Shown here in pieces: positions 5,465 to 46,857 of a DNA stretch of 52,999 nucleotides (positions are counted from its first letter, which is position 1; every line of letters begins with the position of its first letter). The notes beneath the pieces are model-generated. The model had not been told where the DNA came from and did not search any database. It saw nothing but the letters and a program-made list of their open reading frames with translations. Both the position numbers and the translations under genes were made by a program. This stretch comes from Prevotellaceae bacterium (GTDB lineage: Bacteria > Bacteroidota > Bacteroidia > Bacteroidales > Paludibacteraceae), in contig JAISJU010000091.1 in assembly GCA_031261165.1 (NCBI GenBank), positions 1-52,999 on the forward strand, written 5' to 3'.

Positions 5465-5872
5465 TTATTTTCTTATTATCCAATTTTCGATTTTAATGTT
5501 TGAAATTCTATCAAAATGTTTGGTGTTATCTGTAACTAATGTTAGTTGATTAACAATAGCCGAGGTAGCTATCAACAAATCAAAATCATCTACCAACATT
5601 CCTGCTTTGCGCAACCTTGCCTTCTCTTTTGCATATATATCGAAAGTGTCAAAGACAGGCAATACATTTATTTCTTCTGAAAACTCTTTTATTAATTGCA
5701 AGTTTTCAATTACTCGATTGCTGCATTCCGCACCGTATTTGAGTTCTGCGATTGTGATTTCGGAAATATAACAATTCTCGAAACCAATCATTTCAAGTTT
5801 CTTATCCAATTCGTATTTTCCTCTCATATAGAAAATACAAATATTTGTATCTAACAAGTATCCTTTCATCAT
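5465..5872 (-). CDS. vapC: PIN-domain toxin (VapC family) of a type II toxin-antitoxin pair
   Basis: The sequence MKGYLLDTNICIFYMRG...TIAELKYGAE...DLLIATSAIVNQLTLVTDNTKHF has the typical PIN acidic-residue layout. The ATG at 5870-5872 overlaps the upstream stop (TGATG). The track start at 5875 is a TTG. Confidence 0.85.
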   Translation of the reverse strand: MMKGYLLDTNICIFYMRGKYELDKKLEMIGFENCYISEITIAELKYGAECSNRVIENLQLIKEFSEEINVLPVFDTFDIYAKEKARLRKAGMLVDDFDLLIATSAIVNQLTLVTDNTKHFDRISNIKIENWIIRK

Positions 5873-6129
5873 CAAAATTCGGCAATGCTGCGGTTAAAAT
5901 GTCTGCTTCCTCTAATTTCCGAAATCATTTCTTCGGCTGTTTTGTCCGACTGGAACGCCCCAAAGAAACGATGAGCAGAGTTTTTTCTTGCCTTTATTTT
6001 TGCCGTCTCTCTTCGTGTAGCATCATTGATAAGTTCCACCGCCAAAGCCATTTTAAGTTCGGGACTTAAACCTTTTAATAAGCCTAAATAATTACTTATC
6101 ACTATTGGGGTATTCATTGTTGTATTCAT
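5872..6129 (-). CDS. Putative antitoxin partner of VapC (family not recognised)
   Basis: It is a small ORF directly upstream of vapC and overlapping it. The track start (6156) is a TTG lying inside the -7 promoter box. The first ATG is at 6129 (MNTTMNTPIVISNYLGLLKGLSPELKMALAVELI...). Confidence 0.6.
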   Translation of the reverse strand: MNTTMNTPIVISNYLGLLKGLSPELKMALAVELINDATRRETAKIKARKNSAHRFFGAFQSDKTAEEMISEIRGSRHFNRSIAEF

Positions 6130-6637: not shown

Positions 6638-6998
6638 TTAAACGCCTATTAATAAAGGAAATAAGGTAAATGTTAAATTTTTAATTGGAACAAGAAACAG
6701 TTGTTTTTATTGATTTTTTGTTTGTATTTTTCGGCTTTTCAGCCTTAATTTTTAATCAAAAACGGGGTTTGAACGCAAATTACGCAGATAACGCAAATTT
6801 ACGCAAAAGCAACGCTTAAAACTATTGAAAATTAGAAAACGGTTTTAGATTTCTTCTGAATGCTACGCGCGGGGCTAAATGTGCATAACCGTATGCAAGC
6901 GTAGCGCGGCTTACGGTAGATAAAGCCCTGCTGCTGTCCAGCCTGTTAAGCGCAAGGCTGTTAAGTTCTCTGTAAAACGTACCGAACTATGTAAGTCC

Positions 6999-18247: not shown

Positions 18248-21200
18248 TTAATCCTTTTCCACAAGTTCTTCCTGTTCCACCACGTTTTTGCGTGCCTCCA
18301 TCATCTTTTCGTACTCTTCGCGCGAGCCGACAATCAGTTTGTCGAACTCTCTTTGACCGGTACCGGCAGGAATGAGGTTTCCGCAAATTACGTTTTCTTT
18401 CAAACCTTCGAGTCTGTCGAGTTTGCCGTTGATGGCAGCCTCATTCAGCACTTTGGTCGTTTCCTGGAATGATGCGGCGGACATAAAACTGTTGGTCTGC
18501 AATGCCGCGCGGGTGATGCCCTGCAACACTTGGCTTGACGTAGCGGGAATGCAGTCGCGCACTTCCACCGGCTTTAAGTCGCGGCGTTTGAGAATACTGT
18601 TCTCATCGCGGAGTTTGCGCGGCGTTACTATCATACCCGGTTTCATCGTTTCCGAATCGCCCGCCTCTATTACAAACTTTTTGTCCCACAAACGGTCGTT
18701 TTCTTCCATAAAGGCGAGTTTATCCACCATTTGTTTTTCGAGGAATATTGAGTCGCCCGGGTCTTCAATCTGCACTTTGCGCATCATCTGGCGCACAATC
18801 ACTTCAAAGTGTTTGTCGTTGATTTTCACACCCTGCAAGCGATATACGTCTTGTACTTCATTCACAATGTATTCCTGTACGGCGGTGGGTCCCTTGATTG
18901 CCAAGATGTCCGAAGGCGTTATGGCTCCGTCAGACAGCGGCGTACCGGCACGCACATAGTCGCTTTCCTGCACGAGGATTTGTTTCGACAAGGGTACGAG
19001 ATACTTTTTCTGTTCGCCGGTTTTAGACGTAACGGACATTTCTCGGTTACCGCGCTTGATTTTTCCAAAATTCACTTCGCCGTCAATTTCGGCTACCACA
19101 GCGGGGTTGCTCGGGTTGCGAGCCTCGAAGAGTTCGGTTACGCGGGGCAAACCACCCGTGATGTCGCCCGACTTGCCTACCGCACGCGGGATTTTCACCA
19201 ACAACTGACCGCTCTTCACCGTTTCGCCCTCTTCCACTATGATGTGGGCATTCACAGGCAAGTTATAAGTTTTCAGTATTTCGCCTTTTTTGTCCAAGAT
19301 GTGTGCTACCGGCACAATGCTCTTGTCTTTCGGCTCAATGATAACCTTTTCGCGCAAACCTGTCTGTTCGTCAGATTCGGTTTTAAAAGTAACATTTTCC
19401 ACCATTCCCTCAAACTGGATTTTACCGGCAACTTCCGATACAATCACGGCATTGAAGGGGTCCCATTCGCAAATCACATCGCCTTTTTTCACATTGTCGC
19501 CGTTCTTGTAATACAGTTTCGAGCCGTAGGTAATGCTTTGGTTGGTCAAAATAATCTTCGTGTTCGGGTCGATGATGCGCATTTCCGCCAAACGACCGAC
19601 TACCATTTGGAAAGTATTGTTATTTTCCGTAGCCTCTACCGAGCGGAGTTCGTCAATTTCGATGATACCGTCATAGCGCGACACAAGTTTGGACTCGGCT
19701 GCAATGTTTGATGCGATACCCCCTACGTGGAAGGTACGCAGCGTTAATTGCGTTCCCGGCTCGCCGATGGACTGCGCTGCAATCACGCCGACCGCCTCGC
19801 CTTTTTGCACCATTCTGCCGGTTGCCAGGTTGCGACCGTAGCATTTGGCGCAAACGCCTTTTTTCGATTCGCAGGTTAATACCGAGCGGATTTCTACCCT
19901 CTCGATGGGCGAATTTTGTATTGTTTTGGCTTGGTCTTCGCGGATTTCATCGCCCGAAGACACAATCAATTCGCCCGTCAGCGGGTGATAAATATCGTGT
20001 ACCGACACACGCCCCAATATTCTTTCGTAGAGCGATGCCACCACTTCTTCGTTACTCTTTATTTCCATTGCCACAAGCCCGCGCAACGTGCCGCAGTCTT
20101 CTTCGTTAATAATAACGTCTTGCGACACATCGACCAGACGGCGCGTTAAGTATCCCGCATCGGCAGTCTTCAAAGCCGTATCCGCCAAACCCTTACGCGC
20201 ACCGTGCGTTGAAATAAAGTATTCCAACACCGACAAGCCTTCTTTGAAGTTCGACAAAATCGGGTTTTCAATAATCTGACCACCCTCTGCCCCACTCTTC
20301 TGCGGTTTTGCCATCAAACCACGCATACCGGATAACTGACGAATTTGCTCTTTGCTACCGCGTGCGCCCGAGTCGAGCATCATATACACGGAGTTAAAGC
20401 CCTGATTGTCTGACGAGAGTTGTTTCATCAAAATGTTCGACAAGTTCGCATTTACGTGTGTCCAAACGTCAATGGTTTGGTTGTAACGCTCGTTGTTCGT
20501 AATGAAACCCATATTATAGTTGTTCATAATTTCTTCCACTTCCGCGTAGCCTTTTTGAACTAACTCTTCTTTTTCTTTCGGAATGATAACGTCTCCCAAG
20601 TTGAACGACAAACCGCCCTGGAACGCCATTTTGTAGCCCAAATCCTTAATATCGTCAAGGAATTTTGCCGTTGTGGCGATACCGCAAACTTTGATAATGT
20701 TACCGATGATGTCGCGCAGTGATTTTTTCGACAAAATTTCGTTGATGTAGCCTACTTCTTTCGGTACAAACTCATTCACGAGTACGCGACCTACGGAGGT
20801 TTCTTTCAGCATATCCACCAATTCGCCTTTTTCGTTCAAGTCTTCCACAATCACTTTCACAGGCGCGTGCAAATCCACTCTTCCTTCGTTGTAAGCGATT
20901 TCTGCTTCTTCGGGTCCATAGAAAACCAGCCCTTCGCCTTTTGCGCCCGGACGTATTTTGGTAATGTAATACAGCCCAAGCACCATATCCTGCGAAGGTA
21001 CGGTAATCGGTGCGCCGTTGGCAGGGTTAAGAATGTTGTGCGCACCGAGCATCAGCAGTTGCGCCTCCAAAATCGCCTCGTTGCCGAGTGGAAGATGCAC
21101 AGCCATCTGGTCGCCGTCAAAGTCGGCATTGAACGCCGTACAACTGAGCGGGTGCAACTGGATTGCCTTGCCTTCTATCAATTTCGGTTGGAACGCCTGA

Positions 21201-22537
21201 ATACCCAAGCGGTGAAGGGTCGGAGCACGGTTGAGCAACACAGGGTGTCCCTTCATCACGTACTCCAAAATATCGAAAATAACAGGGTCTTTTCTATCTA
21301 CAATTTTCTTTGCCGATTTCACTGTTTTTACGATACCGCGTTCTATCAATTTACGGATAATAAACGGTTTATAGAGTTCGGCAGCCATATTTTTGGGCAA
21401 ACCGCATTCGTGCATTTTCAATTCGGGACCTACCACGATAACCGAACGCGCCGAGTAATCGACACGCTTACCGAGCAAGTTCTGACGGAAACGCCCTTGC
21501 TTGCCTTTCAAACTGTCGGACAAGGATTTCAGCGGACGGTTGGCATCGGTTTTCACAGCCGTAGTTTTGCGCGAGTTGTCGAACAAAGAATCGACAGCCT
21601 CTTGCAACATACGTTTCTCGTTGCGAAGGATTACTTCCGGTGCTTTGATTTCGATTAATCGTTTCAAACGATTATTTCTGATAATGACACGTCTGTACAA
21701 ATCGTTCAAGTCCGAAGTGGCGAAACGACCACCATCAAGCGGCACGAGCGGACGCAAATCGGGCGGAATAACCGGCACAACTTTGATAATCATCCATTCG
21801 GGCTTGTTGCGGTGCTTGGCAGCGCGGAACTGTTCCACCACCTGCAAGCGTTTCAACGCCTCAGCCTTACGCTGTTGCGAAGTATCGGTGCTTGCCTTGT
21901 GGCGCAGGCTGTACGACAATTCGTCCAAATCCAGCCGTTGCAGCAATTCGTAAACCGCCTCTGCGCCCATTTTGGCAATGAATTTGTTGGGGTCAGTATC
22001 TTCCAACATATCATTTTCGCGCGGCAACGTTTCCACCAAATCCAAATATTCGTCTTCGGTCAGCACATCGCCCACAGCAACGCCTTCGTCGCCTTTAACA
22101 CCGGGTTGAATCACCACATATTTTTCGTAATAAATAATGGTATCAAGTTTTTTGCTCGGCATTTCGAGCAGGTAGCCGATTTTGTTCGGCAATGAGCGGA
22201 AATACCAAATATGCGCCACCGGAACAACCAACTGAATGTGTCCCATACGCTCGCGGCGTACCTTCTTTTCGGTAACTTCCACACCGCAACGGTCGCACAC
22301 AATGCCTTTGTAACGAATGCGTTTGTATTTACCGCAATGGCACTCGTAATCTCGGCAGGGACCAAAAATCCGCTCGCAAAACAAACCATCGCGTTCGGGT
22401 TTGTAGGTGCGGTAGTTGATGGTCTCGGGTTTCAACACTTCTCCGCTCGAATGTTCCAAAATTTCTTCGGGCGAAGCAAGACCGACTGAGATTTTATTAA
22501 AATTGCTCTTTAATTTTATTTCTTTTCTGAAAGCCAT
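18248..22537 (-). CDS. rpoC: DNA-directed RNA polymerase subunit beta'
   Basis: 1429 aa. It contains the zinc-binding CHCGKY...CDRCGVEV, the NADFDGD catalytic motif and Bacteroidota-typical features throughout. Confidence 0.98.
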
Positions 22538-22564
22538 AGCTATGTATTTTTATTTGATTACTTT

Positions 22565-23215
22565 TTAAAATATTGATACTATCCATTGTAAAAACTTATC
22601 CCAAGGGAGAAAACTCGAAGATATTATGCCTGAAATAATGGCTGCTCCAAACCAACCTAAGAAAGATAAGATTTTCTTTGTTGTAAATTTTGCTATTGCC
22701 CAATTAATTTTAAGTCTGTATTTTTCCAACAAGTCATCTAAATTGTCGTATTGAATATAGACTTGTTCATACAACAAAATAGCATCTTCCTTATTAGTAC
22801 GTTCCTTCGTCTTCGCTTCTCTCTTTTTTAAAACAATGTCATTGTAAATGACTTTATATTTTGGGTAAAAATTTCCACTGTCAATGGAAGTAATATCTAT
22901 GTATTTAGTTTTACGTTCAAAATTTCCAACAATGTTTTCGTGTAATTTTACATTCAAAAATTTATAGCAATCCAACAATATTCTTTCTATATGCCCTGTT
23001 GCCTTCGGTATTTGTTCACTAATAATTCTTTTGTCTAACGGCTCCGTATAACATCTTGCAACATGGTCATTAAAAGCCCTGATTTCATTAAAAATAGGTC
23101 GCGGAAACTTTTCATAACGACTTTCTATATCAGCAACCAAGGGTTTAATCACCTCATTATAAGTTTTATATAATGGTGAAAGTTGCGAATGAAGATAAGT
23201 ATGTATATTATCCAT
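22565..23215 (-). CDS. ORFan: 216-aa predicted helical protein with a single C-terminal transmembrane anchor
   Basis: A clean ATG-to-TAA frame in about 30% GC DNA. The C-terminal hydrophobic helix is ILSFLGWFGAAIISGIISSSFLPW. It lies 27 nt upstream of the rpoC ATG. No family was recognised. Confidence 0.7.
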   Translation of the reverse strand: MDNIHTYLHSQLSPLYKTYNEVIKPLVADIESRYEKFPRPIFNEIRAFNDHVARCYTEPLDKRIISEQIPKATGHIERILLDCYKFLNVKLHENIVGNFERKTKYIDITSIDSGNFYPKYKVIYNDIVLKKREAKTKERTNKEDAILLYEQVYIQYDNLDDLLEKYRLKINWAIAKFTTKKILSFLGWFGAAIISGIISSSFLPWDKFLQWIVSIF

Positions 23216-23224
23216 TATTTCTAT

Positions 23225-23479
23225 TTATTTCAGTAATTTCAGGTCATCGTATTTATTTAATTCTTTACGATTAAATTCTATAAATCTATTTAAATAGAGA
23301 TAAGGACTTCCTCTGCCTATTAAACGTTCATCGTTTATCGGTGTGTTTTTCAATCGTTTACCGATTCTGACTTCAACAACTTTGTCTAACGCATGAGCGT
23401 CCATTGAAATTACATCACTAAATCTTAAATTTAGTCGTTTTTCAATTATTTTTCTTGAAGAATCATTCAACGTATACAT
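23225..23479 (-). CDS. ORFan: 84-aa basic soluble protein
   Basis: A clean ATG-to-TAA frame in AT-rich DNA. It starts 26 nt after the rpoB stop and ends 9 nt before the next ATG. No family was recognised. Confidence 0.6.
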   Translation of the reverse strand: MYTLNDSSRKIIEKRLNLRFSDVISMDAHALDKVVEVRIGKRLKNTPINDERLIGRGSPYLYLNRFIEFNRKELNKYDDLKLLK

Positions 23480-23505
23480 AACAAAAACCGGATTTTATTG
23501 TTTTT

Positions 23506-26500
23506 CTAATCTAAATTCACACTCAAGCACAATCCGCGCAATTCGTGTAACAATACATTAAGCGATTCGGGTATGCCTGCGTTGGGCATCGCGTCTCCTT
23601 TCACGATTGCCTCGTAGGCTTTGGCGCGACCATTCACATCGTCAGACTTGATGGTCAAAATTTCCTGCAAAATGTGCGCTGCGCCGAAGGCTTCCAACGC
23701 CCAAACTTCCATTTCCCCGAAACGCTGTCCGCCGAACTGCGCCTTACCGCCGAGCGGCTGTTGCGTAATCAGCGAATAGGGTCCGATGGAACGCGCGTGC
23801 ATCTTGTCATCAACCATATGTCCGAGTTTCAGCATATAAATCACGCCGACAGTCGCGGGTTGGTCAAAACGTTCGCCGGTACCGCCGTCATACAGATACG
23901 TTCTGCCGTAATGCGGAATGCCTGCTTTGTCGCACCACTCGTCCAAATCTTCAAGACTTGCACCATCGAAAATCGGGGTGGCAAATTTCTTTCCGAGTTT
24001 TTGTCCTGCCCAGCCGAGTACAGTTTCAAAAATCTGTCCCAAGTTCATACGCGAAGGCACACCGAGCGGGTTGAGGACAATATCTACCGGCGTTCCGTCT
24101 TCGAGGAAAGGCATATCTTCTTCGCGCACAATACGCGATACAATACCTTTGTTCCCGTGCCGTCCTGCCATTTTGTCGCCCACGCGGATTTTGCGTTTTT
24201 TCGCAATATACACTTTTGCCAACTGCACGATACCCGAAGGTAATTCATCGCCGATGGTAATGTTCAGTTTCTTGCGTTTCAACTGCGCGTCAAGTTCTTT
24301 GTATTTCTTCACATAGTTTTGAATCACCGCCTTAATCATATCGTTCTTGTGAGAATCGGAAATCCAGCGGTGAGTTTGTACCTGCGTATAATCAATTTCG
24401 TTCAATGCTTTTTGCGAGAACTTGTTTCCTTTGGCAATCAGTACCGTACCCAAAAAGTCTTTTACGCCCGATGAGGTTTTGCCGTTTGTCAGAACAAGCA
24501 ATTTTTCAATCAAAATAATTCTCAATCGTGCATTTTCCTGTTCAAACTCATCATCGAGTTTAGGCATCATTGCTTTGTCCGTCAATTTCGATTTGCGGTT
24601 TTTGATGGCTTTCGAGAACAGTTTTTTATCCACTACCACACCTGTCAATGACGGCGTTGCTTTCAAAGAGGCATCTTTCACATCGCCCGCTTTGTCGCCA
24701 AAAATGGCGCGGAGTAATTTTTCTTCGGGCGAGGGGTCGCTTTCGCCTTTCGGCGTGATTTTACCAATCATAATGTCGCCCGGCTCAATCAACGCGCCAA
24801 TGCGCACGATACCGTTTTCATCAAGATTTTTGGTTGCATCTTCGCTCACATTGGGAATGTCGGCAGTCAATTCTTCCATACCGCGCTTGGTTTCACGCAC
24901 TTCGAGCGTGTATTCCACCACGTGTACCGAAGTAAAAATATCTTCGCGAACAATGCGCTCGTTCAACACGATGGCATCTTCAAAGTTATAACCTTTCCAA
25001 GGCATAAACGCCACTTTCAGGTTTTTGCCGATGGCAAGTTCGCCGTTTTGGGTTGAATAGCCTTCGGTCAAAATTTGTCCTTTGCTCACACGGTCGCCAC
25101 GATTGACGAGCGGACGCAAGTCCATTGTCATATCCTGGTTGGTTTTTTGGAATTTCGGAATGCGGTGATTTTTCACGGCTGTGTCGAAACTCACAAATTC
25201 TTCATCTTCTGTTCTATCGTAGCGAATGCGGATAACGTCTGCATCAACATATTCCACTATACCATCGTTTTCCGCCATAATTTGCGTACGCGAGTCGCGA
25301 ATAAGTTGTCCTTCAATGCCGGTGCCGACAATCGGTGCTTCGGTACGCAACAAAGGTACTGCCTGGCGCATCATATTCGAGCCCATCAATGCACGGTTGG
25401 CATCATCGTGTTCGAGGAAAGGAATAAGCGCGGCGGCGATTGACGCAATTTGCGTGGGCGAAACATCCATCAGTTGCACCTGTTCGGGCGGCACCACAGG
25501 GAAATCTGCCTCCAAACGCGATTTCACGGTTTTGCGGATAAACGAGCCGTCATCTTTCAACGGCGCGTTGCCCTGTGCTACAATATTATCTTCTTCTTCT
25601 TCGGCAGTAAAATATTTGATGCCTGCGGGCGACAAATCAACCGTTGAGTTTTCCACATTGCGATAAGGTGTTTCGATAAAGCCCAAATCGTTGATTTTGG
25701 CATACACGCAGAGAGATGAAATCAAACCGATGTTCGGACCTTCGGGCGTTTCAATCGGGCAGAGGCGACCATAGTGCGTATAATGCACATCTCGCACCTC
25801 AAAGCCCGCACGCTCGCGGCTCAAACCGCCGGGACCGAGCGCCGACAAACGGCGTTTGTGCGTAATTTCAGCCAGCGGGTTGGTTTGGTCCATAAATTGC
25901 GACAGCGCGTTTGTACCGAAGAACGAGTTAATCACCGAAGAAATCGTCTTGGCGTTAATCAGGTCAATGGGCGTAAACACTTCGTTGTCGCGCACGTTCA
26001 TACGCTCGCGAATGGTACGCGACATACGCGCCAAACCAACACCGAACTGATTGTACAACTGCTCGCCCACCGTGCGCACACGGCGATTGCTCAAGTGGTC
26101 AATATCATCAACCACTGCCTTTGAGTTAATCAGTTCGATTAAATATTTGATAATTTCAATAATATCTTCTTTCGTCAGAACTTTCACTTCCATATCGGTC
26201 GTCAAGTTCAGTTTTTTGTTGATGCGGTAGCGACCTACTTCGCCCAAGTCATAGCGTTTTTCCGAGAAAAACAGGTTATTGATAACCTCGCGAGCAGTAG
26301 CATCATCGGCAGGCTCGGCGTTGCGGAGTTGGCGGTAGATGTACAGCACCGCCTCTTTTTCCGAGTTAGACGGGTCTTTTTGCAGCGTGTTGTAAATAAT
26401 CGCGTAGTCCGACATATTTTGGTCTTCCTTATGGATAAGGATTGTCGGTGCGCCTGTTTCCACGATGTCTTCGATGTGTTTGTTTTCAAGCACCGTTTCG

Positions 26501-27318
26501 CGGTCAATCACCACCTCGTTTCGTTCAATGGAAACTACCTCGCCGGTGTCCTCATCTACAAAGTCTTCCACCCAAGTTTTCAGCACGCGGGCGGCAAGTT
26601 TCGAGCCGACATATTTTTTCAGGTTGGTTTTGTTCACTTTGACTTCTTCTGCCAAATTGAAAATTTCCAGAATATCGCGGTCGCTTTCAAAACCGATGGC
26701 ACGCAAAAGCGTTGTTACCGGCAATTTCTTTTTGCGGTCGATGTAGGCGTACATCACGTTGTTGATGTCCGTTGCGAACTCAATCCACGAGCCTTTGAAC
26801 GGAATGATACGCGCCGAGTACAGTTTTGCACCGTTGGCGTGCGTGCTTTGTCCGAAGAATACGCCCGGCGAGCGGTGTAACTGCGACACCACGACACGTT
26901 CCGCGCCGTTTATCACAAACGAGCCTTTGGGCGTCATATATGGAATAGGTCCCAAATACACGTCTTGAATCACCGTGTCGAAATCTTCGTGGTCGGGGTC
27001 GGTGCAATAGAGTTTCAACTTGGCTTTCAGCGGTACGCTGTAGGTCAACCCGCGTTCGATACACTCGTCTATCGTGTAGCGCGGCGGGTCGATAAAGTAG
27101 TCAAGAAACTCCAGGTTGAAGTTGTTGCGCGTGTCGGAAATAGGAAAATTTTCCGCAAAAACTTTGTATAAACCTTCGTGTTTTCTTTTTTCCTGAGCAG
27201 TGTCAAGTTGAAAAAAGTCCCTGAACGATTTTAACTGTACTTCCAAAAAATCCGGATATTCCAACGGATTTTTTATCGAAGCAAAATTAATTCTTTGAGT
27301 TGCAGTGTTTGAAGACAT
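23506..27318 (-). CDS. rpoB: DNA-directed RNA polymerase subunit beta
   Basis: 1270 aa, with conserved RpoB blocks (e.g. [23 protein letters not shown]). Confidence 0.98.
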
Positions 27319-27360: not shown

Positions 27361-27819
27361 CTATCTATCTGTAATCCTATTTATAACCAAATCCATAGAA
27401 ACTGTTTCCGATATTTTAGGAACTAAAACCGAAACAATTAATGGTGCTGCATTGGCTGTTATGCTGGGGATTACATCAGCAGTAAATAAATATTTATTTG
27501 CTGATAATTGTTGTAGCGACAATTTTTCCACATAACTATCCACATTACAATCTGCTACATTAAATACAATTAAAGAATATTTTGAGAAATCAATAGATAT
27601 AGATAAACCAACTTTACAAGGGAAGTAATGATTAAATTCTTCTGACGAATTAATTATTTGAATAGTAGTTAATCCAATATTTTCCCAACAAGATGAAAAT
27701 CCCATATTTAAGTTTGTGATTTCTATTTCTATAGGATAATTAGATTTATCTGTTTTTTTATCACAACCAATAAACAGGATAGAAAACAGCAATATTGATA
27801 AAATACTATTTTTTTTCAT
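27361..27819 (-). CDS. ORFan lipoprotein (152 aa), AT-rich
   Basis: The signal peptide and lipobox are in MKKNSILSILLFSILFIGC. A 60-nt sample (27601-27660) has 16 G+C by hand count. It lies 42 nt upstream of the rpoB ATG. Confidence 0.65.
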   Translation of the reverse strand: MKKNSILSILLFSILFIGCDKKTDKSNYPIEIEITNLNMGFSSCWENIGLTTIQIINSSEEFNHYFPCKVGLSISIDFSKYSLIVFNVADCNVDSYVEKLSLQQLSANKYLFTADVIPSITANAAPLIVSVLVPKISETVSMDLVINRITDR

Positions 27820-28087: not shown

Positions 28088-28180
28088 TCAGTAATAAGCC
28101 TTTTTATGAATATAGCATAATCAAAATAAAAGATTGACTATCAATGAATTACAAAAATATTTTATTTATATACATAAAAA

Positions 28181-28213
28181 GGCTTAGAAACCTTTTTTCA
28201 AGGTTTCTAAACC
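28181..28213 (-). terminator. Hairpin plus T-run after rplL (terminator/attenuator)
   Basis: The minus strand reads GGTTTAGAAACCTT-GAAAA-AAGGTTTCTAAGCC followed by TTTTTATG. Confidence 0.65.
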
Positions 28214-31220: not shown

Positions 31221-31293
31221 CACGGGAGGTAAGACTCGAACTCACGACACCCGGTTTTGGAGACCGGTGCTCTACCAACTGAGCTACACCCGT
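31221..31293 (-). tRNA. tRNA-Trp (anticodon CCA)
   Basis: Hand-folded cloverleaf: acceptor ACGGGTG/CTCCCGT (one U-U mismatch), D-arm GCTCAGTTGGTAGAGC, anticodon arm CCGGT-CTCCAAA-ACCGG, T-arm GTGAG-TTCGAGT-CTTAC. It occupies the canonical position before secE. Confidence 0.9.
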
Positions 31294-31434: not shown

Positions 31435-32058
31435 TCAAGTCGTTTTCCTATACATTTTCAAAAACAAGAGCGGGAAAAATGCAAAATTCAGCACCATCAA
31501 AGCAAACAAAAGAAAGATGGCAAAAAGCATTAAACCGTCAGGCTGCCAGCCGCAAAATTTGGAAAGCAATGCCAAAACGAGTAGTGCAATTCCTGCAAAG
31601 CCCGAAACATAAGTCATTTTTCCACCAAAAGATTGTGCCAAATCTTTTTTGTAAAGATACATAAAAAGCACAGGCAGGAGCACAAACAGCAAAATTGCTG
31701 TTGTAATAACCAGCACAAGTTGCGCATACGGATAATGCATCAACTTCATAAAAAAGGTGGTAGTCGCGCCGATAGCCGACAAATACCCCGATAAAAACAG
31801 CGTTTTTCTCATAGATTTAATTTTTTTGTAAGTTAATAAATAAATGGTTTCCCGCTGAATTTCGTCAAATCCATCGGGCGAGATATGTTGATAAGCCTTA
31901 TCATACGCTGTTTCAAAACTTGTTCCGTTTTGCATTTCCGCCTCAACGGCACAACAAAAATGGTCAATCAAATCCTCTTTCATCGCTGCCGATGAAATAT
32001 TGCTTTGGTTGATAACCTGACTTATGAAGTCTATTTGTTTCTCCGTTAAACCTTTCAT
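31435..32058 (-). CDS. Integral membrane protein (about 4 TM helices) encoded downstream of the PadR regulator
   Basis: There is an N-terminal soluble region of about 80 aa, then hydrophobic helices (LFLSGYLSAIGATTTFF, LVLVITTAILLFVLLPVLFMYL, GFAGIALLVLALL, LMLFAIFLLFALMVLNFAFFPLLFL). The ATG at 32056-32058 is 12 nt after the PadR stop. Confidence 0.7.
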   Translation of the reverse strand: MKGLTEKQIDFISQVINQSNISSAAMKEDLIDHFCCAVEAEMQNGTSFETAYDKAYQHISPDGFDEIQRETIYLLTYKKIKSMRKTLFLSGYLSAIGATTTFFMKLMHYPYAQLVLVITTAILLFVLLPVLFMYLYKKDLAQSFGGKMTYVSGFAGIALLVLALLSKFCGWQPDGLMLFAIFLLFALMVLNFAFFPLLFLKMYRKTT

Positions 32059-32070
32059 AATCAATATTTT

Positions 32071-32394
32071 TTATGTGGTTATGATTTTATTAATCGTGTC
32101 AATGAAATCTTTTAATTCGCTTTCTTTTTCATTTTTCACTTGCACACCCTGCGTTGTCATAAAATAATAATGCCGCACACGCTTACCGATGTTTTGCGTT
32201 TCTACGTCAATCAATCCGTCTTCTTTCAATTTGTGTAAGGCAGGATACAATGAGCCTTCTTTCAGTAAAATTTTGCTGTCGGACAACTCTTTTACTCTTT
32301 GCGTAATTTGGTAGCCATACATTTTACCGTTTTCGGCAAGCAGTTTCAATACGATTGCCGACAAAGTGCCTTTTAAAAGTTCTTTTGAATACAT
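32071..32394 (-). CDS. PadR-family transcriptional regulator
   Basis: The winged-helix signature is ELLKGTLSAIVLKLLAENGKMYGYQITQRVKELSDSKILLKEGSLYPALHKLKEDGLI. The start was chosen at MYSKELLKG (32392-32394), because a TATCTTTG box lies inside the longer track ORF. Confidence 0.85.
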   Translation of the reverse strand: MYSKELLKGTLSAIVLKLLAENGKMYGYQITQRVKELSDSKILLKEGSLYPALHKLKEDGLIDVETQNIGKRVRHYYFMTTQGVQVKNEKESELKDFIDTINKIITT

Positions 32395-32398
32395 AGCA

Positions 32399-32406
32399 CA
32401 AAGATA
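32399..32406 (-). promoter_or_regulatory. -7 box TATCTTTG immediately upstream of the PadR ATG (possible leaderless mRNA)
   Basis: Only 4 nt separate the box from the ATG at 32394. Confidence 0.4.
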
Positions 32407-32454
32407 CATAGAATTACGATGTATATCCAAATTTTCGAGCATAAAAAAAGTTAA

Positions 32455-32514: not shown

Positions 32515-33702
32515 TTAGTCAAGCAATTCAGTAATCTGACCCGAGCCTACGGTACGACCACCTTCGCGGATTGCAAAACGCAAACCTACGCTGCAAGCAA
32601 CAGGGTAAATCAACGTTACGGTGATTTCCAAGTTGTCGCCCGGCATTACCATTTCTACGCCATCGGGCAAAGAGATTTCGCCGGTTACGTCAAGCGTGCG
32701 GATATAGAACTGCGGACGGTATTTGTTGTGGAACGGAGTGTGGCGACCACCTTCTTCTTTTTTCAAGATATAAACAGATGCCTTGAAAGTAGAGTGAGGA
32801 GTTACTTTTCCCGGGTGGGTGATAACCATACCGCGTTTGATTTCGTCTTTGTCGATACCACGAAGCAACAAACCTACGTTATCGCCGGCTTGACCTTCGT
32901 CCAATATCTTGCGGAACATTTCAACACCGGTTACTACAGATTTTTTACCTTCTGCGCCAAGACCGATGATTTGAACTTCTTCGCCTGTTTTGATGATACC
33001 TGTTTCGATACGACCTGTTGCTACCGTACCACGACCTGTGATAGAGAACACGTCTTCAACCGGCATCAAGAATGGTTTATCAACAGCACGCGGAGGCAAT
33101 TCAATCCAATTATCCACAGCGTCCATCAATTCCATAATTTTATCTTCCCATTCGGGGATACCGTTCAAACCGCCGAGAGCAGAGCCTTGAATAACAGGTG
33201 TGTTATCGCCGTCAAAATCGTAGAACGAAAGCAATTCGCGCATTTCCATTTCAACGAGTTCGAGCATTTCGGGGTCATCAACTTGGTCGCATTTGTTCAT
33301 AAATACCACCAGACGGGGAACGTTTACCTGACGAGCCAACAAGATGTGTTCGCGCGTTTGGGGCATCGGACCGTCTGTAGCGGCAACTACGATGATAGCA
33401 CCGTCCATCTGAGCGGCACCGGTAACCATATTCTTCACATAGTCGGCGTGACCCGGACAGTCAACGTGAGCATAGTGACGATTAACGGTTTGATATTCAA
33501 CGTGAGCGGTGTTGATGGTGATACCGCGTTCTTTTTCTTCGGGGGCATTGTCGATTTGGTCAAATGACTTTACTTCCGAAAGACCTTTTTTTGCCAAAAC
33601 GGTGGTGATAGCAGCCGTTAAGGTAGTTTTTCCGTGGTCAACGTGTCCGATAGTACCTACGTTTACGTGAGGTTTCGACCTATCAAATTTTTCTTTTGCC
33701 AT
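32515..33702 (-). CDS. tuf: Elongation factor Tu
   Basis: [33 protein letters not shown]..., 395 aa. Confidence 0.99.
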
Positions 33703-41165: not shown

Positions 41166-42410
41166 TCAATTGGCTTTTTGCAATAATTGCCGTATTTTTT
41201 CTACATTTTCTTTCTGATTTTCAGGTATAACGTCTGCTTTTTCGTATTTATTTAAATCTTCCAAACATTTTTCTGCATAAGAAAGCCCTTCGGTTGGCGT
41301 ATTCAAAAGTTCCGAATAAACTTTTTCTGCATCTTCGTATCTATTTTGAAAAAGCAATGCTGCTGCTAAATTCGTTTTTATCCAAGTTTGCGTACTGTCT
41401 ATACTTAAACCTTTTTGGGCTGATTGTTCGGATTTTTGGTAGTTTTTGGTAAGAATATAATAAAAGGAAAGATTACCATAGGGTTTGGCAAATTCTTTAC
41501 CATTAGGTTTAATCACAGGAATATAAACTATTGAAGATTTTGAAATAAAAGGCTGTCCATTTTTCTTAATTGTTCTATTATCTAATGAATAAGGAGTTTG
41601 ATAAGAAGAAGTTGCGACATTGTGTGGATTTAATCTAATTGCTTGTTCCAAATTCTCAATAGTTTGCAAAATGCTGTCTTGTTTGCCATAAATAGTAGCA
41701 AGATTAATGTAAGCATCTGAAATATACGGATTAATGGTAATTGCTTTACGAAATGTTTCAATCGCTAATTCATTATTCTCCTGCTTTAAATATGCCGTTC
41801 CTAAATTATGATACGCTCTGTAACTATTCGGATTTAAACGAATAGCAGTTTTAAAATGCTCAACAGCCTTTTCATAATCCCCTTTTTCTGTCAATGCCGT
41901 TGCTAAATTTGTGTAATTTGGCTCGATATGAGATTTTGTTATTGATTTTTCAAAAAACATAATAGCATTGTCGTATTCTTTTTGTTTTATATAAAAAATT
42001 CCAATATTGTTATAAGTGCAAATATTATTAGAATTAATGTCTAAATCTAACGCTTTTTGAAATACCTGTGCTGCTTGTGGATAATTTTCCAATTCTGTAT
42101 ATGCTATTCCTAAATTCGCATATGCCATAACATAAGTGGAATCCAATTTTATTGCTGACTGCAAAAATGGAACAGATAACTCAAAAAGTCTTTCTCTGTT
42201 GTAAATATTTCCCGCACTATTATAAGCCTTTGCATAAGTTGGATTTAAATTAATGGCTTTTGTATAATAACTTAATGCTATTGCAAGATTTCCTTTTAAT
42301 TCTTCCTGAACTCCTTTATTCAAAGCCATTTCAGAACGAATAGTCTTGCAACTGCTAAAAGCAATCAGCAGCAAACAACCTATTATAATATGTATAAGAT
42401 ATTTTTTCAT
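41166..42410 (-). CDS. Tetratricopeptide-repeat lipoprotein
   Basis: The lipobox is in MKKYLIHIIIGCLLLIAFSSC. There are many 34-aa TPR units (A..YY..A..LNP....AY.N.G..Y). The ATG at 42408-42410 is 2 nt after the hisF stop. Confidence 0.8.
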   Translation of the reverse strand: MKKYLIHIIIGCLLLIAFSSCKTIRSEMALNKGVQEELKGNLAIALSYYTKAINLNPTYAKAYNSAGNIYNRERLFELSVPFLQSAIKLDSTYVMAYANLGIAYTELENYPQAAQVFQKALDLDINSNNICTYNNIGIFYIKQKEYDNAIMFFEKSITKSHIEPNYTNLATALTEKGDYEKAVEHFKTAIRLNPNSYRAYHNLGTAYLKQENNELAIETFRKAITINPYISDAYINLATIYGKQDSILQTIENLEQAIRLNPHNVATSSYQTPYSLDNRTIKKNGQPFISKSSIVYIPVIKPNGKEFAKPYGNLSFYYILTKNYQKSEQSAQKGLSIDSTQTWIKTNLAAALLFQNRYEDAEKVYSELLNTPTEGLSYAEKCLEDLNKYEKADVIPENQKENVEKIRQLLQKAN

Positions 42411-42412
42411 TC

Positions 42413-43168
42413 TCATTTTCTCACAGCAATTCCTTTTTCGCATAAATATTTTTTCAATTCCTGTATCCCAATTTCCTTAAAATGAAAAATGCTCGCCGCA
42501 AGTGCCGCATCGGCTTTGCCTTCGGTGAAAACATCGCTGAAATGACTCATTGCACCCGCGCCGCCGGAGGCGATGATGGGAATATTCAAACTCTCGGACA
42601 ATGTACGCAGTGCCTCGTTGGCAAAGCCCTGTTTCACGCCATCGTGATTCATACTCGTAAAAAGAATTTCGCCCGCACCGCGTTCCTGCGCCTCTTTTGC
42701 CCACTCGAAAAGTTTTCGCTCGGTAGGAATACGCCCGCCGTTGAGGTAGCAAGTCCATTCGCCGCCATCAAATTTGGCATCAATGGCAACGGTGCAAACC
42801 TGCGAGCCGAAGTTTTGAGCGATTTCGCTTATCAAATCGGGGTTACGCAGTGCTGCGGAATTGACGGACACTTTGTCCGCTCCCGCGCCGAGCAGTTTAT
42901 CCACATCGCGCAACTCGTGTATGCCGCCGCCAACGGTAAAGGGAATGTTGATGTGGCGGGCGATGCGGCGCACAAGGTCGACAAAGGTTTTGCGCCCCTC
43001 GTGCGAGGCGGTGATGTCCAAAAACACAAGTTCGTCTGCACCCTGACGGCTGTATTCCGCACCCAACTCCACAGGGTCGCCCGCCGAGCGCAGGTTCTCA
43101 AAATTGATGCCTTTAACGGTTTGACCGTCTTTGATGTCGAGGCAGGGGATTATTCTTTTGGCAAGCAT
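42413..43168 (-). CDS. hisF: Imidazole glycerol phosphate synthase, cyclase subunit
   Basis: [39 protein letters not shown]...VGGGI... Confidence 0.96.
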
Positions 43169-44000: not shown

Positions 44001-45299
44001 CTATTCTTCGTTGAAACTGCAAGCAAATGCCTTTTGGATTTTTTCTACATAATCCAATTTTTCCCAAGTGAAAAGTTCCACTTCTTTTTCAATCGTGCCT
44101 GCGTAGGGCGATTTGAATGTTTTTTTCACCGTTTGCGGCTCTTTGCCGAAGTGTCCGTAGGCTGCCGTTTCCGAGTAAATCGGGTTGCGCAGTTTCAAGC
44201 GGTCTTCTATCGCTTTGGGGCGCAGGTCGAAGAGGCGTTCCACCGTTTCGGCAATTTCACCGTCAGAGAGCGACACTTTCGCTTTGCCGTAGGTATTCAC
44301 ATACACGTTCATCGGTTTTGCCACGCCGATAGCGTAGGACACTTGTACCAGCACTTCGTTTGAAACGCCTGCTGCCACAAGGTTTTTGGCAATATGGCGA
44401 GCCGCATAAGCCGCACTTCTATCCACTTTCGAGGGGTCTTTGCCCGAGAACGCGCCGCCGCCGTGTGCGCCTTTGCCGCCGTAGGTATCCACGATGATTT
44501 TTCTGCCTGTCAAGCCGGTGTCGCCGTGCGGTCCGCCAATCACGAATTTGCCGGTCGGATTAACGTGCAAAATCAGGTATTTGTCGAACAAATCGGCAAG
44601 ACGTTTGGGCAATTTTGCTACCACGCGCGGAATTAAAATATTCTGCACATCGTCTTTGATTTTTGCCAACATTTCCGTATCGGCTTGGTCTTGCGACTTG
44701 CCTGCGGCGGATTGCACAAAATCATCGTGCTGTGTGGAAATCACAATGGTGTGAATGCGTTTCGGGTCGCCGAAATCGCTGTACTCAATCGTAACTTGCG
44801 ATTTGGAGTCGGGGCGCAAGTAGGTCATAACCTTTCCTTCGCGGCGAATATCGGCAAGTTCCGTGAGCAGCAAGTGCGACAAATCCAACGAAAGCGGCAT
44901 ATAATTGTCCGTTTCGCCGGTGGCGTAACCGAACATCATACCTTGGTCGCCCGCACCCTGATTGTAGGGGTCTTCGCGTTCCACACCGCGATTGATGTCC
45001 GCCGATTGCTCGTGCAATGCCGAGAAAATACCGCAGGAATCGCCGTCAAATTTGTACTCGGCTTTGGTGTAGCCGATGCGGTTTATCACGCGGCGCGGCA
45101 CGTCCTGCACATCAACGTATGCTGTTGATTTTACTTCGCCTGCCAAAACGACTTGACCGGTGGTTACAAGCGTTTCGCAAGCCACTTTTGAATTGGAATC
45201 GAATGCCAAAAACTCATCGAGAATGGCATCTGAAATCTGGTCGGCAACCTTGTCGGGATGCCCTTCCGAAACGGATTCGGAGGTAAATAAATAAGCCAT
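44001..45299 (-). CDS. metK: S-adenosylmethionine synthase
   Basis: [28 protein letters not shown]...[12 protein letters not shown]...[19 protein letters not shown]. Confidence 0.97.
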
Positions 45300-45456: not shown

Positions 45457-45567
45457 CTTTGTATGTGTAGGGATTATGGCTTATCAGCAAAGGGGAAAGG
45501 AAATGTATTTTTAGCATTTTTTTTCGTGGTTGCAAGCGAGCCAAATTTATCCACTTCAAATTTTCTG

Positions 45568-46383: not shown

Positions 46384-46857
46384 ATGAAAAATCTACATTA
46401 TTTATTAGTTGTGCTTTTTGCGGGAATGATGTTTGTTTCCTGCGAGAAATCTAAAAAAAACAATGGTAATCCGATTACTTCAGAATTTTGGGTATCGGTA
46501 GATAACTTGCCTGTGAGGAATTTCAAACAGGATACGGTTTATGTTATAAATAATGACGGTGAATACCTGCAACACCCTTATTTTATGCTATCTTCTACCT
46601 ATAATGTTGATTTTGCAACACAAAGCATTTTGGTTAATTATTTTGCAGGTTGTATGTTTTGCGATGTTAAATCTACTTTTGACAACAAAAACGGCTATCA
46701 TTGGAATGTTGTTTATTCCGCCAACAAAGATATTATGTGTGTCAGGGCAATGGATTTTATGGTGTATAAAATTGTGCCTAAAATTCCTACAAATACACGT
46801 ATAGAACTGAATGCGGTTCTTGTTCCCTGCACAGACGCCAAAACAGTTTCTGAATAA
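46384..46857 (+). CDS. Lipoprotein of unknown function
   Basis: MKNLHYLLVVLFAGMMFVSC contains the lipobox. The ATG at 46384 is 28 nt downstream of a TATTTTTG box. The track start at 46354 is a TTG inside that box. Confidence 0.6.
   Translation: MKNLHYLLVVLFAGMMFVSCEKSKKNNGNPITSEFWVSVDNLPVRNFKQDTVYVINNDGEYLQHPYFMLSSTYNVDFATQSILVNYFAGCMFCDVKSTFDNKNGYHWNVVYSANKDIMCVRAMDFMVYKIVPKIPTNTRIELNAVLVPCTDAKTVSE

Follow-up and report, generated by a model that had tools for sequence, protein, structure and literature searches.

An AT-rich gene pair lodged between rpoB and rpoC belongs to a large family of unnamed two-gene cassettes

Results

A two-gene cassette separates rpoB from rpoC

The adjacency of rpoB and rpoC, which encode the beta and beta' subunits of RNA polymerase (RNAP), ranks among the most conserved gene adjacencies in bacteria. 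On a 52,999-nt stretch of DNA from a Prevotellaceae bacterium (GenBank assembly GCA_031261165.1, contig JAISJU010000091.1, positions 1 to 52,999 of the forward strand; hereafter the window), the two genes are separated by a cassette of two AT-rich genes encoding proteins of 84 and 216 amino acids (aa). Judging by the accession series, the source may be termite-gut metagenomes. Both proteins belong to large unnamed families and, judging from the loci compared here, the pair behaves as an autonomous mobile two-gene module. The insertion between rpoB and rpoC is old, and we tentatively regard the pair as a toxin–antitoxin (TA) or defence-like module.

The rpoB-rpoC gap measures 968 nt (22538-23505) and holds two open reading frames (ORFs) on the same strand as their neighbours, within the array tuf–tRNA-Trp–nusG–rplKAJL–rpoB–rpoC on the minus strand of the window. 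Upstream lies rpoB (23506..27318, 1270 aa), the presumed source of transcription for the cassette, which is 75-90% identical to RpoB C-termini from Bacteroidota genomes. It is followed by a 26-nt spacer from the rpoB stop to the small-gene ATG (23480..23505), the small gene (23225..23479, 84 aa), a 9-nt spacer (23216..23224), the large gene (22565..23215, 216 aa), a 27-nt spacer from the large-gene stop to the rpoC ATG (22538..22564), which is too short for a promoter, and rpoC itself (18248..22537, 1429 aa), all on the minus strand. These coordinates agree exactly with those of an initial annotation made from the sequence of the window alone.

That annotation had contrasted the gap with the short spacer usually found here, and the comparison with other genomes bears this out. 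Of 78 reference Bacteroidota genomes with rpoB and rpoC both located, 76 have a spacer of 14-311 nt between them, none of the 78 carries cassette genes between them, and the cassette is clade-specific. An ancient pair kept at this site family-wide, with native GC content and a known function, had been named as the reading that would speak against a foreign cassette; at rpoB-rpoC the pair occupies a narrow clade, its GC content is not native and no known function emerged. Longer gaps occur elsewhere, at 480 nt in locus L102 and 260-311 nt in several Flavobacterium genomes. A metagenome-assembled genome (MAG) of Saprospiraceae (L085:4790-6590, JAEUUR010000387.1) has an independent rpoB-rpoC gap of 1796 nt, which holds ORFs of 253 aa and 349 aa on the same strand, neither related to the cassette of the window.

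The two genes form a large and strictly paired family

The initial annotation had described the two genes as ORFans, which proved wrong. A word-indexed search recovered 161 homologues of the large protein at 39-71% identity, all of about 210 aa and all unnamed. An exhaustive profile search raised this to at least 1021 cluster representatives (clustered at 50% identity) at E ≤ 1e-3 (508 at E ≤ 1e-10), and 187 relatives of the small protein were found by profile. The few source names available (Dysgonomonadaceae, Tannerellaceae, Lentimicrobiaceae and 'Bacteroidales bacterium') indicate Bacteroidales, and many cassette loci carry the label human gut metagenome. More than 100 loci include the DNA upstream, and in each of them the small gene comes directly before the large gene, the aligned segments of the two being about 3-19 nt apart, with a 1-base overlap in L003.

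Pairwise comparisons of the large gene gave ratios of nonsynonymous to synonymous substitution rates (dN/dS) of 0.06-0.20, and those of the small gene 0.15-0.24, which points to purifying selection on both. Given these ratios (0.06-0.24 overall) and the many homologues, both ORFs are real genes, as the initial annotation had argued from their length in AT-rich DNA. Neither protein showed homology to a housekeeping family in Pfam, NCBIfam or, by Foldseek, the Protein Data Bank (PDB).

The pair occupies many unrelated chromosomal sites

Grouping the 105 cassette loci by flank similarity gave 41 clusters, and about 35 of the contexts other than rpoB-rpoC have no tie to RNAP. The clearest view of the unit comes from two human-gut loci, L132 and L138, which share 95% DNA identity over 1017 bp only and have unrelated flanks; the common segment begins about 93 bp ahead of the small gene and extends about 60 bp beyond the large one. 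Free-standing copies generally carry a promoter element of their own, with TAnnTTTG, the Bacteroidetes -7 box, found 15-110 nt upstream of the small-gene ATG in 29 of 33 free-standing representatives. No neighbour family recurred among 98 flanking ORFs from 34 contexts.

Several features of individual loci deserve mention. A 42-nt direct repeat (L132:5622-5663 and 6811-6852; 90% identical, 1189 nt apart) flanks the ~1-kb unit of L132 and contains a small hairpin, and a hairpin with 25-nt arms (L138:5609-5666) precedes the unit of L138 and shares the first bases of the element, GGATTCTGCGTT. Both may be clues to the insertion mechanism; they are isolated cases, and a general pattern of terminal repeats or target duplications was dropped as an explanation. 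Locus L014 adjoins an acyltransferase gene and has a 224-nt AT-rich upstream region (L014:379-602) with a TACTTTTG box and TTAATTAA palindromes. In L132, a CATTAATTAATG palindrome follows the -7 box. The TTAATTAA and CATTAATTAATG palindromes may be operators.

The insertion between rpoB and rpoC is old

The closest homologues of the large protein (51-71% identity) all occupy the rpoB-rpoC site, adding six further lineages, which are known from short contigs. An rpoB tail upstream and an rpoC head downstream flank the cassette in L188 (large protein 71% identical to that of the window), L015-L018 / L106 (69%), L189 (64%) and L190 (51%). The contig of L019 (60%) starts inside the cassette and continues into a full-length rpoC, 80% identical to that of the window, and L186 / L187 represent a strain-level relative with a small protein 99% identical to that of the window and an rpoB tail upstream. 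The window rpoC is 80-86% identical to the rpoC downstream of the cassette in L019 and L015. Synonymous divergence (dS) among the rpoBC-located copies is mostly ≥1, that is, saturated, and likewise for the adjacent rpoC. Because diverged copies share one site and dS is saturated, the insertion at rpoB-rpoC is old, and a recent horizontal acquisition there was rejected.

An empty version of the site is found in L030, an 'uncultured Porphyromonadaceae' MAG, whose 43-nt rpoB-rpoC spacer aligns with the 26-nt and 27-nt spacers of the window once these are joined, its left half matching the former and its right half the latter. The alignment scored 44, against 24.5 ± 3.6 for shuffled sequences, and 0 of 5000 shuffles reached 44. 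Since this intact spacer aligns with the joined spacers, L030 represents the empty site, and the inserted DNA is essentially the two ORFs alone (~918 bp), placed between GTTTTTGTT and (A/T)GTAAT.

A neighbour-joining tree united the rpoBC-located copies and L014 in one clade, and their exact monophyly had low support (22 of 200 bootstrap replicates). Strict monophyly of the rpoBC-located copies was not established; their clade also takes in L014, a copy from a different site that carries a promoter of its own. The rpoB-rpoC site may have been hit once, followed by vertical descent, or repeatedly, through a preference for this site. At L190, the spacer from rpoB to the small gene (L190:373-430, 58 nt) includes a hairpin-like inverted repeat, ATACTTGGG…CCCGAGTAT, with a T run behind it. 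The repeat is a possible attenuator ahead of the cassette, and the window copy is without it.

Composition and transcription signals

The cassette has a GC content of 0.298, whereas rpoB/rpoC reach 0.479-0.486 and the window as a whole 0.432. GC content at third codon positions (GC3) is 0.22-0.27 in the cassette and 0.55-0.57 in rpoB/rpoC. The initial annotation had called the composition foreign; this stands in so far as it is atypical for the host, and fails as a sign of recent arrival given the diverged copies at the same site and the saturated dS. Across loci, cassette GC ranged from 0.25 to 0.40 and flank GC from 0.27 to 0.60 with no correlation between them (r = -0.02), and cassette GC fell below flank GC in 79 of 92 cases. 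Because cassette GC does not follow flank GC, AT-richness is a property of the cassette itself at any site. At rpoB-rpoC, GC3 remains at 0.22-0.27, although dS has reached saturation and the genes of the host have a GC3 of about 0.45-0.6. This persistence implies either that an AT-rich (perhaps weakly translated) coding sequence is selected for or that the genes are repeatedly replaced from an AT-rich pool; no simple model accounts for it in this host.

Within the window, TAnnTTTG was found on neither strand between 21570 and 24143, the 26-nt spacer included, and the 13-58-nt upstream spacers of all rpoBC-located copies likewise contained no -7 box. A terminator scan of the gap returned a single match, a weak 5-bp stem within coding sequence and without a T tract. 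Apart from this stem, the scans agree with the initial annotation, which had reported neither a terminator nor a TAnnTTTG box in the interval. Because rpoC is essential and starts merely 25-63 nt from the cassette, its transcription must run through the cassette. Both cassette genes thus very probably share one mRNA with rpoB and rpoC; with all four genes on the same strand and no promoter or terminator detected between them, this would be the simplest route to rpoC expression, and the co-transcription proposed in the initial annotation is upheld to that extent.

The large protein is predicted to be a membrane-anchored helical bundle

An AlphaFold 2 (AF2) model of the large protein, built with 29 homologues, is all-helical and of high confidence, with a predicted local distance difference test score (pLDDT) of 95.6 and a predicted template modelling score of 0.82. 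Its seven helices (residues 2-34, 39-54, 62-102, 116-140, 142-165, 167-202 and 205-215) suggest a cytoplasmic helical bundle with a C-terminal membrane anchor. The predicted transmembrane anchor comprises residues 182-200, ILSFLGWFGAAIISGIISS (22616..22672, minus strand), with a Kyte-Doolittle mean of 1.79 over 19 residues, and 67 of 68 diverse members have a hydrophobic segment within the final quarter of the protein. By the same scale, the small protein contains no hydrophobic membrane segment. The order noted in the initial annotation, a small soluble protein followed by a membrane-anchored one, is consistent with these results.

Residue conservation was counted over the 68 diverse members, which are 24-63% identical. 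A near-invariant motif, N43-E-I-R46-A-F-N-D50-H51 (23063..23089, minus strand), includes arginine and histidine at R-x4-H spacing, and N43 is conserved in 63 members and E44, R46 and H51 in 67 each. A second near-invariant polar stripe, H75-I-E-R78-I-L-L-D82-C-Y-K85 (22961..22993, minus strand), lies along one face of the long helix 3, with H75 conserved in 68 of 68, R78 and D82 in 66 each, and K85 in 67. Further along the protein, A134 is conserved in all 68 and E138 in 66. Helix order and topology would place the conserved polar residues at the membrane-distal end of the bundle.

The AF2 model of the small protein has a pLDDT of 70.6, which rises to about 87 in an N-terminal three-helix part (residues 6-39). 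Its C-terminal half is poorly modelled, yet carries the invariant motif R56-G57-S58-x-Y60-L-x-L63-x-R65 (23285-23314, minus strand), a combination compatible with a segment that folds on its partner. A Foldseek search of the small model against the PDB gave no match at E ≤ 0.2.

Other AT-rich genes in the window

A second AT-rich insertion in the rpoBC operon appears to lie between rplL and rpoB, where a 152-aa ORF (27361-27819, minus strand; GC 0.27, GC3 0.18) has a lipoprotein-type N-terminus (…LFIGC) and matched only weak lipoprotein signals in Pfam, NCBIfam, PADLOC and PHROGs. Between rplL and rpoB the window has a gap of 927 nt, versus 58-439 nt in 67 reference Bacteroidota, none of which has a homologue of this ORF. 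Upstream of the ORF, a strong terminator- or attenuator-like hairpin (28181-28213, minus strand; 14 bp stem and T run) comes directly behind rplL, with a TATTTTTG box (28152-28159, minus strand) after it; the hairpin and TATTTTTG box together resemble an rplL-rpoB attenuator arrangement. Two lower-GC ORFs between tuf (32515-33702) and tRNA-Trp (31221-31293), a 123-aa PadR-family regulator (GC 0.35) and a 207-aa protein without a family match (GC 0.38), occupy 31435-32442 (minus strand) and possibly represent a further insertion, in the conserved tuf-secE-nusG array.

Farther away, a VapBC-like pair (5465-6129, minus strand) consists of a 135-aa PIN-domain protein (Pfam E 2e-12, GC 0.31) after an 85-aa ORF, with a 1-base overlap; its GC content of 0.31-0.39 is an AT-rich signature resembling that of the rpoBC cassette. 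A 425-aa TPR-repeat protein is encoded at 41166-42443 (minus strand; GC 0.305, GC3 0.22) and a 157-aa ORF without matches at 46384-46857 (plus strand; GC 0.34). The genome of the window thus seems to be scattered with low-GC accessory genes. A SAM-II riboswitch aptamer (45501-45560, minus strand; Rfam RF01726, 57.4 bits versus a gathering score of 44) lies upstream of the gene at 44001-45299.

Discussion

The cassette as a candidate toxin–antitoxin or defence module

We favour, tentatively and short of calling it probable, a TA- or defence-like module in which the 216-aa protein would be the effector and the 84-aa protein its neutraliser or regulator. This reading draws on the strict and tight pairing with the small gene first, the promoter of free-standing copies, the patchy spread over many sites, the AT-richness independent of the host, and the membrane-anchored partner with its conserved polar site. 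The VapBC-like pair of the window, which is AT-rich to a similar degree, speaks for it as well. Under it, a free-standing two-gene module of about 1 kb with its own promoter would have spread over many chromosomal sites of Bacteroidales, and the two ORFs alone would have landed midway in the short rpoB-rpoC spacer, without a promoter or terminator of their own. The insertion would then have been inherited, kept by purifying selection and transcribed within the rpoB-rpoC mRNA. The large protein would act as a membrane-anchored effector, and E44, R46-x4-H51, H75, R78, D82, K85 and E138 would form either its active site or the site that binds its partner. Binding through its RGSxYLxLxR segment, the small protein would serve as the cognate neutraliser or regulator. 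We infer the toxin and neutraliser roles, and any link to phage, from what could be observed directly, namely the anatomy, family size, strict pairing, mobility, age of the insertion, selection and absence of own transcription signals.

A more specific form of this proposal, which we hold to be rather improbable, is a new class of addiction or abortive-infection (Abi) system built from two folds without relatives, whose supply is tied to the rpoB-rpoC mRNA. Shut-off of host transcription by phage or stress would let a labile small protein decay and the effector fire, and lasting selection for AT-rich, poorly translated codons would limit dosage in an operon that is among the most heavily transcribed of the cell. 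The promoterless state of all rpoBC-located copies is compatible with such coupling of the module to host transcription.

A number of results weigh against a TA or defence role. No match for either protein, nor for 68 large and 9 small relatives, was found in Pfam, NCBIfam, PADLOC or PHROGs, and no family of PADLOC-DB 2.0 matched the cassette proteins at E ≤ 1; sub-threshold hits amounted to library noise (DUF2096_N in 6 of 68 members, MIT-like, holin/SLATT on the transmembrane segment, and Sigma70_r4 at E 0.064 in 2 members). Structural searches with the large model by Foldseek gave best matches of E 0.23 (TM score ≤ 0.3) among 350,542 PDB chains (entries to April 2026) and of E 0.48 in BFVD, and profile searches of PDB sequences gave best E values of 0.1-0.7, none significant. 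One such match, of residues 118-172 to the MIT domains of Vps4, was judged a generic helical hairpin. TA and defence genes are often common among viral, phage and plasmid sequences, and no cassette relative was found in IMG/VR (2.9 million contigs), the GenBank phages of INPHARED (50,697 genomes) or the plasmids of PLSDB.

The neighbourhoods of the cassette tell likewise. The initial annotation had suggested looking for homologues in defence islands, and these do not lie there consistently: among the 98 flanking ORFs, most neighbours are housekeeping genes (AcrB, ammonium transporter, glutamate dehydrogenase, DnaA, phosphoglucomutase, capsule genes), and only a few resemble defence or TA genes (DRT-type reverse transcriptase, AbiD, PD-Lambda-2, HigB and SieB). 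No known mechanism accounts for the movement of the cassette, with no recombinase domain in the pair (Pfam), none recurrent among the neighbours, and no consistent terminal inverted repeats or target duplications around the cassette across the loci compared. Co-transcription with rpoB and rpoC is itself deduced from the absence of motifs, and a non-toxic function of benefit to the host would account just as well for long-term purifying selection and for fixation in an essential operon.

Such a function, the main rival reading, is possible but unlikely. The pair would then be an accessory membrane module, with the large protein as a sensor, scaffold or enzyme at the inner membrane face and the small protein as a soluble adaptor or regulator. 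It would benefit the host, and in this lineage the rpoBC mRNA would make its expression proportional to growth rate. Selection on both genes, retention of one site across diverged lineages, neighbours that are mostly housekeeping or capsule/polysaccharide genes, the lack of likeness to known toxins or defence proteins, and the absence from the viral contigs, phages and plasmids searched are all in line with this. However, around 40 unrelated sites and a promoter-bearing 1-kb unit typify selfish or accessory cassettes, the AT-rich composition is independent of the host, and no functionally related gene recurs beside the cassette. A closer tie to RNAP, as an accessory subunit or in a related function, was rejected: the pair lies elsewhere in most genomes, occurs at rpoB-rpoC in 0 of 78 references, and its large protein is membrane-anchored.

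The conserved residues of the large protein invite comparison with HEPN toxins, which are commonly found in two-gene TA or Abi modules. Of the 68 members, 67 have R46 and H51 at R-x4-H spacing, and other polar residues are conserved as well. A divergent membrane-tethered HEPN-type RNase would use R46-x4-H51 for catalysis, build its active site by dimerization at the membrane and be blocked by the small protein. We nevertheless consider this improbable, as no HEPN-type Pfam family emerged over the 68 members even at E ≤ 1, the pLDDT-95.6 model retrieved no HEPN structure from the PDB by Foldseek, and the motif lies not where the last core helix begins but close to the N-terminus, in the short helix 2. 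It is very improbable that the pair is a chromosomal leftover of a prophage, a moron or superinfection-exclusion pair whose membrane protein blocks phage DNA entry or assembly. The context of L006-L009 is phage-like (Peptidase_S49 and Phage_pRha neighbours), one SieB-like neighbour occurs elsewhere, and the anatomy is membrane-anchored, but the majority of contexts are not prophages and the viral and phage collections contained no relative. That the proteins are the mobility machinery of the cassette itself, an unrecognised recombinase with a DNA-binding helper, is barely credible. The ~1-kb unit does move without an associated recombinase gene, conserved R/H/K/Y residues and a three-helix small protein are compatible with DNA chemistry, and the 42-nt direct repeat surrounds the unit of L132. 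However, a conserved transmembrane anchor is poorly reconcilable with a recombinase, Foldseek revealed no PDB likeness to recombinases or nucleases, consistent terminal repeats or target duplications are missing at other loci, and the rpoBC copy has long been immobile and is still under selection.

Significance and relation to known systems

Literature searches for genes between rpoB and rpoC, or for similar Bacteroidales modules, returned nothing relevant. The mobile two-gene, TA-like cassette is a kind of element already known; the proteins, the fold and the residence within the rpoB-rpoC transcript are undescribed in the libraries and literature searched. A foreign-looking pair that has long resided under selection in an essential operon offers a natural experiment on the accessory or selfish modules that such operons tolerate. 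The family to which it belongs is large, unnamed and without a Pfam model, includes human-gut Bacteroidales, and combines a fold without structural relatives with a conserved site. The pair is thus a well-defined candidate for a new TA or defence mechanism in an important gut phylum.

With type II TA modules the cassette shares two co-directional genes at minimal spacing, the small gene first, a promoter element on most free-standing copies, a patchy and mobile chromosomal distribution, and AT-richness relative to the host. Unlike them, its proteins match no toxin or antitoxin family, the putative effector is a tail-anchored protein of 216 aa with an unmatched fold, and the window copy, embedded in the rpoBC transcript, either lost its promoter or never possessed one. 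Membrane-effector Abi and exclusion pairs such as RexAB or SieB likewise join a membrane protein to a cytoplasmic partner within a compact module that can be found in odd chromosomal places; the cassette differs in showing no homology to them (PADLOC, PHROGs) and in not being prophage-borne in the collections searched. The HEPN toxins of TA and Abi systems have in common with the large protein a near-invariant R-x4-H motif in an all-helical protein of a two-gene module, whereas the latter has no HEPN profile or structural likeness, an atypical motif position and a C-terminal transmembrane anchor. Csx28 is reportedly a membrane-pore accessory protein of type VI-B CRISPR systems in Bacteroidetes, with an N-terminal transmembrane helix and a gene linked to cas13b. 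The cassette differs from it in its C-terminal anchor, in having no CRISPR genes nearby and in that Foldseek against the PDB gave no Csx28 match. Csx28 is nonetheless said to be, like the large protein, a helical Bacteroidetes protein of about 200 aa with a divergent R..H motif and a membrane helix, and as such provides a precedent for membrane-acting defence effectors.

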